Shown piece by piece: positions 44,883 to 48,757 of a stretch of DNA of 48,815 nucleotides. Under the pieces are notes generated by a model that worked only from the letters and a program-made list of their open reading frames with translations, was not told the origin of the DNA and did not search any database. Made by a program: the position numbers and the translations under genes. Numbering within the stretch: position 1 is the first letter of the stretch; each line of letters starts with the position of its first letter. Source of the DNA: Vulcanimicrobiota bacterium (lineage in GTDB: Bacteria; Vulcanimicrobiota; Vulcanimicrobiia; Vulcanimicrobiales; Vulcanimicrobiaceae); NCBI GenBank assembly GCA_003135555.1, contig PLCF01000015.1, positions 1-48,815 of the forward strand, read 5' to 3'.

Positions 44883-46490
44883 TCACGCCTTCCGCGCGAA
44901 GTCCGCGATCAGCGCGGGCGTCGCGGCGTCGAAGCCCACGACGTCGAGCATGCCGCCGTCGTTGGGGTCCGCGATGGTGAACCCGTTCGACGTCATGCCG
45001 ACCACGACGAGCTTCGCCGGAATGCCCATCCGCTCGCGGTAGCGCCGCAGCGCCTCGTCCGGGTGGATGGTGCCGGCCCACGTCTCCGAGTCCGTCATGA
45101 TGAGGAACAGGTCGACCGTGAGCCGCCGCTCGAGCGCGTAGAGCATCGGGAGCGCGCAGTCCGTTCCCATGAACGGCAGCGCGGCCGTGCGCTGCACGAC
45201 CGAGTCGACGCTTTCGGCCTTGCCGATCTCGAACGGCACGAAGTCGTCCGCGAACGCCATGACCCGCACCGCCTCCTCGGTGCGCACGTGCGTGAGCGCC
45301 ATCGCCGCCGCGCCGACGCGCGGCGTGATCCCCGGGATACCGGCGATCGTGCCGCTCGACATCGAGCCCGACACGTCGAGCCCGATCAGCGTGCGCGCAC
45401 CGGTCGGCTCGACGTTCTCGAACGCCAGCGCGAACGCCGCGTCGAGCGCGTCGACGACCGCCGGCACCGGCGTCCACGTCGCCGAGCCGCGCACGCCGCG
45501 TCCCGACTTGTAGGTCGTGAGCGCCGCGAGCAGCGCGATCGGGTGGATACGTGCCTTGCGCAGCGCCGTCCGATCCGTGATCCGCGCGATCACCGGTGCG
45601 GTCGCCTCGCCCTTGGGCGTGAGCAGACCGACCCGCGTGAGCGTCGCGAGGTTACGGATCAGGGCCGTCATCGGCAGTCCCGGGAGCAGCGCCTCCCAAA
45701 CACGCGGCTCCTTGAGCCACGCGCTCGGCAGCGCTTCACGCGGGAGCCCGGTCGCGCGCACCAGCTCCGCGCACGTTGCGGCGTCGGCGCCCTCCGACAC
45801 CTTGGCCGTTGCGTGCGCGCGCAGGAGCGACAGCGCCTGGAACTCCTCCGTCGGGACGTCGCCCTTCACGATCCACGCATAGAGCGCGGCGCGCTCGGCG
45901 TCCGCGGCGAGCGGGTGCGCGAGACGGAAGACGTCACGGTGCGTGAAGCCCTCGCGGTTCTGGTACTTGAGCGCCTGGTACGCGAGATCGCGGACCGGCT
46001 TCGCCTCGTACCAGCCACGCAGACCGCGGCGCAGGCCGCGGCCCCAGCCGCGGAACTGCTCGATGAACGAGCAGAACGTGAGCAGGTGCGAGCCCGTGCG
46101 GCACACGCGCTGCAGGCCCTCGCCCAGTGCGAAGCTGCGCGTCGCCTCGTCGCCGAAGCCGGCGCACGCGGCCAGCGCGAAAATCGCCGGCTGCACCTTC
46201 GGCGCGCGACCGCTCTCGGAGAGCTCGATCACGCGTGCGACGACCCGACGGCCGTCCTCGCGAATGGCGTCGACGAGGTTCACCGCGTTCTCCTTGGTGA
46301 GCCGGTCCTCGGTCGCGTAGTACGTACCCGATTCGGCACCGAGAATCAGAAAGCGGTCGACGCGCGCCCAGCGGTCGAGCGGGTAGACGTAGCCGCCGTT
46401 GTCGGCGCGCACCTGGGCGCGACCCGGCTGCGGCTGCGTCTGCAGCGTGCCCGCGGCGCGGCCGCGGAAGATCCGTGCGAGCATGTTCAT
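44883..46490 (-). CDS. rsr: Ro60 ortholog (TROVE + vWA domain RNA-binding protein)
   Basis: DNGGYV, RFLILGAESGTYY, RTGSHL, RGWGRGLRR, KYQNREGFTHRD, ALIRNL, ARIHP, LDVSGSM (MIDAS), GTDCALP, TDSETW, IADPND.GMLDVVGFD. Confidence 0.95.
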   Translation of the reverse strand: MNMLARIFRGRAAGTLQTQPQPGRAQVRADNGGYVYPLDRWARVDRFLILGAESGTYYATEDRLTKENAVNLVDAIREDGRRVVARVIELSESGRAPKVQPAIFALAACAGFGDEATRSFALGEGLQRVCRTGSHLLTFCSFIEQFRGWGRGLRRGLRGWYEAKPVRDLAYQALKYQNREGFTHRDVFRLAHPLAADAERAALYAWIVKGDVPTEEFQALSLLRAHATAKVSEGADAATCAELVRATGLPREALPSAWLKEPRVWEALLPGLPMTALIRNLATLTRVGLLTPKGEATAPVIARITDRTALRKARIHPIALLAALTTYKSGRGVRGSATWTPVPAVVDALDAAFALAFENVEPTGARTLIGLDVSGSMSSGTIAGIPGITPRVGAAAMALTHVRTEEAVRVMAFADDFVPFEIGKAESVDSVVQRTAALPFMGTDCALPMLYALERRLTVDLFLIMTDSETWAGTIHPDEALRRYRERMGIPAKLVVVGMTSNGFTIADPNDGGMLDVVGFDAATPALIADFARKA

Positions 46491-46543: not shown

Positions 46544-46680
46544 AGCCCGCGGGCAAGTGATGTTCGAGGGTGGGCTTGCGCCCCGCGCTCTACCACTGAG
46601 CTACGTGCGATGCACGGCGGGAATCGAACCCGCGCCTCTCGTTTAGCAGACGATAACCTCGGACGTTCGGCCCGCAAGCC
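46544..46680 (-). ncRNA. yrlA: Y RNA, YrlA type (permuted tRNA-like domain)
   Basis: 5' GGCUUGCGGGC-CGAA pairs with 3' CUU-GCCCGCGGGCU (bulged-C Ro site). Internal T arm GCGGG-UUCGAUU-CCCGC, loop-closed acceptor-like stem CGUGC-AUC-GCACG, then D arm UA-GCUC-AGUGGUA-GAGC. Confidence 0.9.
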
Positions 46681-46683
46681 GAA

Positions 46684-46792
46684 ACCGTGGACGAGCGATT
46701 GTTCGAGGAGTGAGGCTCACCCGTAGCGGACTCGCCCCATGCGCTTTCGCGCGGTCGTGAGGAACGATAACCTCGAACGTCCGGCCCACGGC
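46684..46792 (-). ncRNA. Y RNA without tRNA-like domain (YrlB-like)
   Basis: 5' GCCGUGGGCCGGAC-GUUCGAGG-UUAUCG pairs with 3' CCUCGAAC...CUCGUCCACGGU; 5' segment nearly identical to the neighbouring YrlA; GAAA-capped hairpin. Confidence 0.8.
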
Positions 46793-46812
46793 GGCCGGCT
46801 CATGATTGTGAG

Positions 46813-46951
46813 GACTCGCAGACGAATGGTGGTGCGGGAGCGGGACGACACCTCGCGTCCCTCGCCGACATTGCGCGGCTTGCGCCGCACGCCGCCTTTT
46901 GGATTCGAACCAGTAGCTTCCAGAGAACCCGCACCGTCCGGCCCGCGAGCC
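46813..46951 (-). ncRNA. Third Y RNA with T-loop-like element
   Basis: 5' GGCUCGCGGGC-CGGAC-GGUGCGGG pairs with 3' CCCGCACC...UUC-GUCUGCGAGUC; contains UGG-UUCGAAU-CCA and a GCAA-capped hairpin; begins 4 nt after the rtcB stop. Confidence 0.75.
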
Positions 46952-46955
46952 GGGA

Positions 46956-48146
46956 TCAGCCCTTGATGCAGACCACCTGGCGGAGCGTGTGTACGATCCG
47001 TACCAGATCGTGCTGCGCCGCCATGACGTCGTCGATGTCCTTGTACGCGGACGGTGCCTCGTCGAGGACGCCCGCGTCCTTGCGGCATTCGACGCCGTGC
47101 GTCTCGCGCGCGAGATCCTTGAGCGTGAGCGTGCGCATCGCCTCGCCGCGGCTCATCCGGCGGCCGGCGCCGTGCGAGCACGACTCGAACGATTCCGGAT
47201 TGCCGAGACCGCGCACGACGAACGAGCGCGCGCCCATCGAGCCGGGGATGAAGCCGAGCTCGTCGAGGCCGGCGCGGACCGCACCCTTGCGCGTCACGTA
47301 CACGTCGGCACCGAAGTGCCGTTCGCGCGCGACGTAGTTGTGGTGGCAGTTCACGACGGTCTCGGCGCGCGCGAAGCGCGGCAGCTTGACCTTGCCGTCG
47401 CGCAGCGCCTCGAGCGCGTTCTCCATCATGATCTCGCGGTTGGTGCGAGCGTAGTCCTGCGCCCAGCCTACCGCGTCCACGTAGGCGTCGAACGCCGGCG
47501 TGTTCTCGGTGAGGTGGGCGAGGTCGCGATCGGCGATCGTGACGCCGGCGCGCTCGAGCTCCTCGTGCGCGCGCTCGATGTAGAACGAGCCGATGCGATT
47601 GCCCGCGCCGCGCGAGCCCGAGTGCAGGACGAGCCAGACGTCGCCCGCTTCGTCAAGGCAGACCTCGCAGAAGTGGTTGCCGCCGCCCATCGTGCCGAGC
47701 TGCTCGCGCACGTTGCGGGTCGAGACCTTCGGCGCGCGCTCGACCACGCGGTCGTAGCGCTCGCCGAGGTCGGCCTTCCACGCGCGCTCCGCCGCCGGCG
47801 TCGCATCGCGGTGAGCCGCCTTACCGACCGGCACCACGTGCTCGATCGCCTTGCGAATGCCGCGGAGGTCCGTCGGAAGGTCCTCGGCGCGCAGGGTGAG
47901 CTTCTGCGCGATCATGCCGCAGCCGATGTCGACGCCGACCGCGGCCGGAACGATCGCACCGATCGTCGGGATGACGCTGCCCACGGTCGCGCCGCGGCCC
48001 AAGTGGACGTCGGGCATCACCGCGACGTGCGAGTGCACGAACGGCAGCGAGGCCATGTTGGCGACCTGCTTGCGCGCGTTTTCGTCGAACTCGACGCCGT
48101 CGACCCACGCCTTGATCGGGTGGCCGGCGTTCTCGATCACTTCCAC
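46956..48146 (-). CDS. rtcB: RNA-splicing ligase RtcB
   Basis: MPDVHLG.GATVG, AVGVDIGCGM, LGTMGGGNHF, LHSGSRG, HHNY, RKGA, IPGSMG, SCSHGAGR, DEAPSAYKDI; AAGGAGG SD before the GTG at 48146. Confidence 0.96.
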   Translation of the reverse strand: MEVIENAGHPIKAWVDGVEFDENARKQVANMASLPFVHSHVAVMPDVHLGRGATVGSVIPTIGAIVPAAVGVDIGCGMIAQKLTLRAEDLPTDLRGIRKAIEHVVPVGKAAHRDATPAAERAWKADLGERYDRVVERAPKVSTRNVREQLGTMGGGNHFCEVCLDEAGDVWLVLHSGSRGAGNRIGSFYIERAHEELERAGVTIADRDLAHLTENTPAFDAYVDAVGWAQDYARTNREIMMENALEALRDGKVKLPRFARAETVVNCHHNYVARERHFGADVYVTRKGAVRAGLDELGFIPGSMGARSFVVRGLGNPESFESCSHGAGRRMSRGEAMRTLTLKDLARETHGVECRKDAGVLDEAPSAYKDIDDVMAAQHDLVRIVHTLRQVVCIKG

Positions 48147-48165
48147 GGTGATGCCCTCCTTTCGG

Positions 48166-48203
48166 AAAAATAAGAAGCGGGGTGAGCGCATCGCTCACCC
48201 CGC
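48166..48203 (-). terminator. Intrinsic terminator in the rtcB leader (attenuator)
   Basis: Perfect 12-bp stem GCGGGGTGAGCG/CGCTCACCCCGC followed on minus by UUCUUAUUUUU; lies between the promoter and the rtcB SD. Confidence 0.85.
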
Positions 48204-48232
48204 CTTCGGCGTTCGTGGTTTGCGCTCGAGTG

Positions 48233-48334
48233 TTAGGTTCGGCTCGCCCCGATCGGCGTGCACGCCGTCAGCGGCTTCCGCGAGGCGGAGCCGTGATTTC
48301 GATCGAGGCCGGAGACGTACGATGGTGTTTGCAT
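48233..48334 (-). CDS. Putative leader peptide of the rtcB operon (33 aa)
   Basis: MQTPSYVSGLDRNHGSASRKPLTACTPIGASRT*; starts ~10 nt after the predicted TSS and ends ~30 nt before the terminator. Confidence 0.5.
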   Translation of the reverse strand: MQTPSYVSGLDRNHGSASRKPLTACTPIGASRT

Positions 48335-48350
48335 GATGAACTCGGGAAGA

Positions 48351-48380
48351 AGCGTACGCGACGATTGCGACCTTTGTCAA
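48351..48380 (-). promoter_or_regulatory. Sigma70-type promoter for the rtcB-Y RNA-rsr operon
   Basis: Minus strand TTGACA (48380-48375)-N18-TACGCT (48356-48351). Confidence 0.65.
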
Positions 48381-48446
48381 GGTGTCGGCGCGCGTTTTTC
48401 GACTGGCGTCGATTGTGGAGATCGAAAAAGATTTTATGAGAACCGC

Positions 48447-48476
48447 TTGACAAGCAGCTAGACTTCGCTCTAGGAT
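48447..48476 (+). promoter_or_regulatory. Sigma70-type promoter for the tRNA array
   Basis: TTGACA (48447-48452)-N18-TAGGAT (48471-48476). Confidence 0.7.
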
Positions 48477-48485
48477 CGGTCCGTT

Positions 48486-48617
48486 ATGATGCAACGATCC
48501 GCATCGGCCCGCCCATCATCCAAAGGCCACTCGCTATGGTCTTTAGATTCGTATTGCCTTAGCGCGAATACGTTTGGGCGAGTCGCGGCGAAGCCGGAAG
48601 GCATCGTCGTATCGTAG
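48486..48617 (+). CDS. Putative leader peptide of the tRNA array (43 aa)
   Basis: MMQRSASARPSSKGHSLWSLDSYCLSANTFGRVAAKPEGIVVS*; ATG ~3 nt after the predicted TSS; many A/T-ending codons. Confidence 0.45.
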   Translation: MMQRSASARPSSKGHSLWSLDSYCLSANTFGRVAAKPEGIVVS

Positions 48618-48645
48618 CTGTCGCACCGGAGCTCTTGTAGGTTTA

Positions 48646-48685
48646 CGAGGGGATCGGCGCACAGCCGGTCCCCTCGGTCGTTTCC
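48646..48685 (+). terminator. Strong hairpin / weak terminator ahead of the first tRNA
   Basis: 13-bp stem CGAGGGGATCGGC / GCCGGTCCCCTCG (one G-U), loop GCACA, followed by GTCGTTTCC (poor U tract). Confidence 0.55.
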
Positions 48686-48686
48686 T

Positions 48687-48754
48687 GGGTCCGTGTCGTG
48701 GCGACGGGCGCGATTCCAACCCGCGCAGTGGGCGTTCGACTCGTCCCGGACCCG
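48687..48754 (+). tRNA. Atypical tRNA-Trp(CCA) with truncated D-arm
   Basis: Acceptor GGGTCCG/CGGACCC + G73; anticodon loop TT-CCA-AC; T arm GGGCG-TTCGACT-CGTCC; D arm only GTCG-TGG-CGAC; no encoded CCA end. Confidence 0.7.
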
Positions 48755-48757
48755 CAT

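Follow-up and report, generated by a model that had tools for sequence, protein, structure and literature searches.

A candidate ribosome-coupled attenuator upstream of an rtcB-Y RNA-rsr operon and its back-to-back twin before a tRNA array

Two protein regulators, RtcR and TrcR, are known to induce RNA-repair operons, which encode Rsr, Y RNA and RtcB, and cryptic tRNA arrays. In Salmonella, Rsr, Y RNA and RtcB are brought together in one operon, rsr-yrlBA-rtcBA, which is controlled by RtcR and sigma54. Translation stress in Anabaena co-induces a long tRNA array, an HNH gene and rtcB (PMC8421152), and this trn L-array/rtcB regulon is under the DNA-binding repressor TrcR, which acts at promoter repeats (PMC8421152, PMC10272220). 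The accessible text of PMC8421152 contains neither 'attenuat' nor 'leader'.

Control by a leader has been described elsewhere. In the whiB7/wblC attenuator of Actinobacteria, a translated upstream open reading frame (uORF) favours a Rho-independent terminator, and poor translation leads to an antiterminator and read-through (PMC10274678). The whiB7 uORF senses many amino acids, and that of M. smegmatis holds all of them except Cys (PMC10274678). In P. aeruginosa, the 13-aa leader peptide PA5471.1, located about 250 bp upstream, controls armZ (PA5471, RtcB-like)-PA5470; transcription attenuation has been proposed, ribosome-targeting antibiotics induce the genes, and links to a release factor and to mexXY control are described (PMC12057347, PMC3516279). 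The principle of uORF attenuation is already known, even upstream of an RtcB-like gene. The accessible parts of PMC4007540 and PMC8297930 hold nothing on rtcB attenuation, and in the literature searched, which included few subscription journals and no supplements, we found no report of a tRNA array or an Rsr/Y RNA/RtcB operon under attenuation, and none of a leader with all 20 amino acids.

We analysed a stretch of 48,815 nucleotides from a Vulcanimicrobiota bacterium, a member of a group of uncultured soil bacteria (the window; genome G000, contig C83), in which an rtcB-Y RNA-rsr operon on the minus strand stands back to back with a tRNA array on the plus strand (Table 1). The leader of rtcB is a real, conserved regulatory leader, and the twin leader on the other strand adds to its interest. 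Folding models make it fairly likely that the rtcB leader is a whiB7-type ribosome-coupled transcription attenuator, one of a back-to-back pair, which induces rtcB-Y RNA-rsr and spare tRNAs under translation stress.

Table 1. Features of the operon, the two leaders and the start of the tRNA array in the window.
Feature	Coordinates	Strand	Details
rsr (Ro60/TROVE)	44883..46490	-	PF05731, PF25045; NF041674 below its cut-off
Y-RNA-like (YrlA-like)/tRNA-like RNA	46587..46672	-	between rtcB and rsr; RF02553 37 bits, E 1e-5, below the gathering score of 69
rtcB RNA ligase	46956..48146	-	396 aa, GTG start at 48146; PF01139 E 4e-122
rtcB Shine-Dalgarno (SD) AAAGGAGG	48155..48162	-	sequence; conserved
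rtcB terminator-like hairpin and U tract	48166..48205	-	intrinsic type, 14 pairs (48205-48175), -27.8 kcal
Candidate antiterminator AT-R	48184..48227	-	starts 6 nt past the uORF-R stop; -19.6 kcal, z -2.6
uORF-R	48233..48334	-	33 codons, no SD, ~9 nt from the presumed transcription start; MQTPSY...SRT; stop at 48233
CGGGGCGAGC	48242..48251	-	9/10 copy of the terminator 5' arm; within a small pre-stop hairpin
Hairpin P1, within uORF-R	48272..48293	-	5' strand contains GCUCCGCCU; covariation
rtcB operon promoter, sigma70-type	48351..48380	-	TTGACA 48380-48375, 18 nt, TACGCT 48356-48351; read by eye
Divergent promoter	48447..48476	+	TTGACA-18-TAGGAT; equal layout in 20/21 loci by pattern match
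uORF-T	48486..48617	+	43 codons, all 20 amino acids; MMQRSAS...IVVS
Candidate antiterminator AT-T	48617..48665	+	begins at the last base of the stop codon; -25 kcal, z -4.05
Twin terminator-like hairpin	48646..48685	+	13 pairs, weak U tail GUCGUUUCC
tRNA-Trp, first gene of the array	48687..48755	+	ARAGORN

Against the release-factor-linked RtcB model TIGR03073, the rtcB product scores 138.6 bits, below the cut-off of 271.8. Matches to RF02553 similar to that of the window occur in 5 of 7 related loci. The region 46560-46950 (minus strand) holds several partly repeated Y-RNA/tRNA-like units (GGCCGGACGT..GAGGTTATCGT), only one of which scored with YrlA. In a related genome (G015), which has two copies of the whole module, one rtcB (L116:2623-4779, contig C20) is interrupted at the conserved GC motif near residue 76 by an intein that includes an HNH domain.

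The rtcB type of the window was found in 20 of 44 genomes searched of the genus. We aligned 18 leaders, comprising 16 loci from 15 genomes and two metagenome loci, with pairwise identities of 44-93%. All close leaders belong to one genus or close kin, and the statistics below do not come from independent lineages. L033, which is the same as L011, was left out, as were L008 and L115, which contig ends cut. Also outside the alignment are L114 and L142, in which the leader is present, and the loci that lack it, namely L012, L013, L032 and the divergent L015. In the RtcB tree, L012, L013 and L032, which lack the entire rtcB leader, form one supported clade whose sister keeps it, which fits a single loss. 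In L142, both leaders and the tRNA array are kept and rtcB is gone past the SD; in L114 (8240-8745), another short ORF lies between the terminator and rtcB.

The promoter layout TTGACA-18-TAnnCT is present in all 18 aligned leaders; a consensus promoter scan of the window missed the rtcB promoter. Transcription of the operon would start near 48344. Counterparts of uORF-R begin with an ATG 5-12 nt past the assumed start and span 32-34 codons in every leader, and the ATG and the TA of the stop codon are invariant within an otherwise variable leader. From the stop codon to rtcB the distance is 85-94 nt, with a hairpin and a U-rich tail in the gap. The peptide itself is poorly conserved: mean amino-acid identity is 29% over codons 11-33 of the 13 ungapped 33-codon peptides, and no identity excess appears at first or second codon positions. 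Since the +2 frame across uORF-R is likewise open in 17 of 18 leaders, an open frame says little about translation, and the case for it lies in the start, stop and length being fixed. With this second open frame and no SD, translation of uORF-R is putative.

The promoter spacer (48371-48351, minus strand) reads GGTCGC-N10-TACGCT, with TGTCGG-N10-TAGGCT in L027, and its GTCG element is reminiscent of the mycobacterial PafBC motif. The genome has two WYL matches.

Hairpin P1 covaries, with 14 two-sided changes and none of 500 shuffles as high; possibly it acts as a pause or insulating hairpin. Covarying hairpins that span uORF-R, together with the equally open +2 frame, would also suit a leader in which the uORF is incidental. 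Such a leader would act as a small structured RNA, or else as a constitutive, leaky terminator or processing signal by which rtcB is kept at a fixed low level, with regulation left to the promoter. The WYL proteins encoded in the genome, the GTCG element of the spacer and the clade without the whole leader are in line with this. Against it, the start and stop codons are invariant, the conserved length has a chance of 3% per shuffled sequence, and Rfam gives no family match on the leader. Moreover, both leaders, though unrelated, place the antiterminator base no farther than one ribosome footprint from the stop, and the all-20 composition of uORF-T, described below, has no explanation without translation. 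We regard an incidental uORF as unlikely.

The sequence-only reading had placed a canonical terminator between the promoter and the rtcB SD, and this was confirmed: the window has the 14-pair hairpin, followed by the tail UUCUUAUUUUU, and the terminator is conserved in all 18 leaders, with 5-8 U within the first 9 nt past the stem. Each of the 18 leaders combines a uORF of conserved start, stop and spacing with an intrinsic terminator (GC hairpin and U tract) before the first gene. RNAalifold of the 18 leaders chiefly returns the terminator and two short hairpins. A search of Rfam gave no match on either leader, at E up to 5 for the window and up to 0.05 for seven related loci.

The same reading had named an antiterminator; in the version weighed here, a ribosome stalled midway in uORF-R would free GCUCCGCCU for the 5' arm of the terminator, or CGGGGCGAGC would capture the 3' arm, with site-specific induction of the antibiotic type. 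As had been stated, GCTCCGCCT (48291-48283, minus strand) can form nine pairs, two of them G-U, with AGGCGGGGT (48205-48197). Nor does any 12-nt segment in this genome form a better duplex with the 5' arm than GCUCCGCCU (-18.3 kcal). In 8 of 18 leaders, the segment that pairs best with the arm is again found at this offset (37-43), which follows from the likeness of the P1 3' strand to the terminator arm. The near-duplication of the 5' arm CGGGGTGAGC by CGGGGCGAGC holds in this genome beyond chance (9 of 10 bases, 0 of 150 shuffles). On the other hand, a nine-base-pair complement is reached by 17% of 150 uORF shuffles. Two of the nine pairs almost never form, the pairing with the arm covers 68% of cells with no two-sided change, and the bases of GCUCCGCCU covary instead with their partner inside P1. 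The duplicate is not conserved: across the remaining 17 leaders the match drops to 5-8 of 10 bases, in nearly every case what chance would give. Such a stall would further require pairing across the stalled ribosome and a conserved stall site, whereas the peptide is poorly conserved. We consider this mode of induction quite improbable, and the specific antiterminator is probably wrong.

A different alternative fold appears past the stop codon. When terminator pairs were forbidden by soft constraints, the post-stop region formed one long imperfect hairpin in all 18 leaders (-18.5 to -26.9 kcal). In the window, this is AT-R, which pairs GAGCGCA (48227-48221) with UGCGCUC at the base, CAC with GUG in the middle and CGCC-GAA-GGCG at the top, and takes up the 5' arm, the loop and the top of the 3' arm of the terminator. 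When cut 9 nt short of the terminator end, the transcripts of all 18 leaders have the antiterminator as their most stable fold, and 65% of shuffles likewise lack terminator pairs in this prefix fold. Every leader favours the terminator at equilibrium (by 3-15 kcal), so that a switch has to be argued from kinetics. The findpath barrier from antiterminator to terminator, an upper bound, averages 15.6 kcal over the 18 leaders; with 10 or 13 post-stop bases taken out of play, as under a ribosome terminating at the stop, this mean is 5.6 or 2.2 kcal.

We then slid a ribosome along uORF-R, with no pairs allowed across it. The modelled switch occurred only at the stop: with the 3' edge of the ribosome at +13, +16 and +19, the terminator nucleates in 1, 12 and 18 of the 18 leaders, and with the ribosome at codons 2-14 before the stop it does so in only 0-2. 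A full-leader equilibrium model that allows pairs across the ribosome gave no switch, and the terminator nucleated in only 2-3 of 18 leaders with the ribosome at the stop; the pairs that span the ribosome differ from species to species. Inspection of the folds for a trp-like 1:2/2:3/3:4 scheme, built on the pre-stop hairpin or the 3' strand of P1, revealed no conserved register.

On the rtcB side, all 18 folds show a candidate for a mutually exclusive antiterminator within ribosome reach, but it stands weakly against shuffles and covaries little. In 6 of 18 leaders the barrier exceeds that of 90% of shuffles, and in 11 the drop in barrier on masking does so; antiterminator energy has a mean z of only -1.0 against shuffles (18 leaders). 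The cells of AT-R are 82.5% paired with only two two-sided changes, and 126 of 500 shuffles reach as high. By these models, AT-R is a better candidate for the antiterminator than the pairing with GCUCCGCCU, and the rtcB side, taken alone, is plausible as a ribosome switch. The broader proposal of the sequence-only reading was a ribosome-controlled terminator/antiterminator switch with rtcB off by default. The conserved promoter, terminator, spacing and ends of the uORF, together with the folding models, support this proposal, though not its named antiterminator. Likewise, the general idea that ribosome position on the leader decides the fold is supported, but not a stall in mid-leader. Because the conserved alternative fold follows the stop codon, the logic would be whiB7-like, asking whether the ribosome reached the stop, rather than relying on one stall site within the leader.

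We also weighed control of translation, in which the terminator-state fold frees a post-stop segment to pair with the rtcB SD and start codon, and the ribosome on the uORF opens or closes this pairing by its position. In the minimum-energy folds of several leaders, a CUUCC/CCUCU/CCAC segment pairs with the SD or the GUG start, and for 11 of 18 leaders the model gives a more accessible SD in the antiterminator state. However, the differences are small and absent in the window (0.07 vs 0.05), the U tract is conserved, and the twin leader controls tRNA genes, which have no SD. Such control is highly improbable as the main mechanism; the SD pairing could be a second lock rather than an alternative.

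The composition of uORF-R bears on what the leader senses. It contains no run of control codons for an amino acid linked to the downstream genes, as a classical attenuator of the trp/his/ilv type would. Across the 18 leaders, 13-17 different residues occur in 32-34 codons, with a mean of 15.8 amino-acid types against 14.3-14.5 expected, which is mild enrichment only; 3-7 amino acids are absent, and Trp is absent in 17 of 18. These absences, together with a weak motif, S-[YF]-x-L-x-G-x-x-P, that recurs near the end of uORF-R, would fit an attenuator of the same anatomy tuned to a narrow signal, either a nascent-peptide stall or one drug class. Such tuning seems scarcely credible: the peptide has the low identity and the lack of excess at first and second codon positions given above, the Gly and Pro codons of the motif coincide with the pre-stop hairpin, and a modelled stall anywhere upstream leads to read-through.

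The preferred reading, a ribosome-coupled attenuator that answers to translation in general, draws on the twin leader on the opposite strand, which was absent from the sequence-only reading. This leader is unrelated in sequence to the rtcB leader and has the same design. uORF-T is near-leaderless, present in 21 of 21 loci examined and 32-46 codons long. Counterparts of AT-T start at or just past the stop codon; their mean z is -2.8, and all 21 loci lie below the shuffle mean. AT-T covaries, with 12 two-sided changes and 0 of 500 shuffles as high, and its barrier drop exceeds that of 90% of shuffles in 18 of 21 loci. By shuffles and covariation alike, the twin leader has a mutually exclusive antiterminator. 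The terminator-like hairpin begins 24-31 nt past the uORF stop, with 98.9% of cells paired and nine two-sided changes. Its tails hold 2-7 U in 10 nt and are weaker than those on the rtcB side. The twin leader must act on transcription or processing, because the tRNA genes downstream are not translated.

The tRNA array runs past the window; ARAGORN finds at least 16 tRNAs before the contig ends (G000:C83:48687-50222). In five complete relatives, the arrays comprise 21-24 genes and end in an HNH gene, and 7 of the 21 twin loci have only 0-2 tRNAs in the DNA examined. With a near-complete tRNA set and HNH and rtcB neighbours, this is a long tRNA array (L-array). Further along the array, beyond the window (G000:C83:49917-49991), lies a tRNA-like gene whose anticodon is CUA (amber). 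Its D arm is short and its anticodon stem has two mismatches, and it is possibly a decayed tRNA-Gln or a suppressor; none was found in 14 related loci. In G012, a DUF6847 gene (L118:8916-9371) is inserted in the middle of the tRNA array.

Of the 21 loci, 8 have a uORF-T that encodes all 20 amino acids and 14 have one that encodes 19 or more, kin loci not being independent in these counts. For comparison, 0.26% of 43-residue proteome windows contain all 20 and 2.4% contain at least 19, and about 1% of base shuffles contain 20. Full sets are spread over three branches of the RtcB tree, and the positions of W, C and H differ between clades. RNA structure may drive some of these residue swaps.

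At the level of sequence, the anatomy is established: a promoter, a near-leaderless uORF, a set distance from stop to hairpin, a terminator and an alternative hairpin. For its working, we propose the following model. The antiterminator would be complete about 9 nt before the terminator can form and would act as a kinetic trap. A ribosome that keeps pace as far as the uORF stop would cover the base of the antiterminator, the terminator would nucleate and the operon would stay off. If the ribosome is slow, stalls anywhere upstream or never loads, the antiterminator would persist, and the polymerase would read into rtcB-Y RNA-rsr. The divergent leader, built alike from unrelated sequence, would gate the tRNA array, with a uORF-T that often samples all 20 amino acids. 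By analogy with the systems above, the signal may be general translation failure, caused by ribosome-targeting antibiotics or by cleaved or uncharged tRNA, and the output would be an RNA ligase, a Ro/Y RNP and spare tRNAs.

A wider version of this idea is tentative, and we put it at somewhat below even chances: a chromosomal, protein-free 'translation failure' switchboard, in which two unrelated back-to-back attenuators gauge whether ribosomes complete a short test gene. The attenuator before the tRNA array would be kept supplied with all 20 amino acids, so that any loss of aminoacyl-tRNA, as by a toxin or anti-phage tRNA cleavage, would call up spare tRNAs, the twin would supply the ligase and the Ro/Y RNP to repair or clear damaged RNA, and the arrangement would replace RtcR and TrcR.

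Of 301 genomes drawn from the phylum, 13 have this rtcB type, and the leader is absent in the three same-family matches examined from outside the genus. Among the matches listed in a genome-collection scan, the six examined from other taxa or loci are plain terminators that lack the leader. Viral contigs were scanned with a loose pattern, and 80 of at least 120 loci yielded one hairpin-like match, inside an apparent coding region. Sufficient upstream DNA was available at 74 metagenome rtcB loci, of which 12 have a uORF and a terminator, a count made without a chance control. Nine of these 12 leaders are unrelated to that of the window, so leader gating of rtcB may recur. Upstream of rtcB in L037, L041, L065, L066 and L069, we notice a separate family of 29-codon uORFs with 16-17 different residues, which precedes a CCCCUCC...GGAGGGG terminator; L035, L081, L090 and L100 have further unrelated leaders before rtcB.

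In the contigs examined from soil metatranscriptomes X1-X3 (5-6% of words), X1 and X3 hold a relative about 88-90% alike. Its contigs span the leader, terminator and rtcB, and others cover the tRNA-side leader; none aligned over 48316-48567. These contigs are no evidence for the switch, because they lack ends, strand and level and DNA may be present, and their loose ends point to no common start site.

Searching the genome for units of promoter, uORF and hairpin gave six matches from 29 uORFs, namely the two leaders, three classical-looking attenuators and one unclear case. The three (C36 minus 5347, C74 plus 78 and C74 minus 19757) have near-leaderless peptides rich in Val/Ile/Leu or Met/Cys, followed by terminators, and are likely to be classical amino-acid attenuators in a little-studied phylum. 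The amino-acid biosynthesis genes after them are presumably ilvE, ilvC and a homocysteine synthase. Coupled attenuation looks available in this genome, because these attenuators share the layout of promoter and uORF.

Both modules, then, seem to be ribosome-gated here and, as modelled, are probably switched on only when ribosomes fail to finish the test gene. If true, this is a third wiring of the same response. Ribosome gating argues for a role of rtcB, rsr and the tRNA array in recovery from translation failure. The leaders are shorter than 200 nt and portable, so the inducing damage is testable codon by codon in a laboratory host.

Compared with Salmonella, the operon has a sigma70-type promoter with an attenuator, and its order is rtcB-Y RNA-rsr. 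RtcR (PF06956) was not found in the genome; its absence is not proven, because the assembly is only 84% complete. As in Anabaena, an HNH gene follows the tRNA array or lone tRNAs, in seven related loci; there, however, the TrcR repressor is in charge, whereas control here appears RNA-based. The locus shares with PA5471.1/armZ a leader peptide upstream of an RtcB-family gene, and differs in its 33-codon leader, in an RtcB below the TIGR03073 cut-off and in the genes that follow, Y RNA and rsr. Finally, the leader would work like the whiB7 attenuator. There a transcription factor is produced, whereas here an RNA-repair operon and a tRNA array would be switched on; alanine is not enriched (Ala 9.5-11.9%), and two copies of the device stand back to back.
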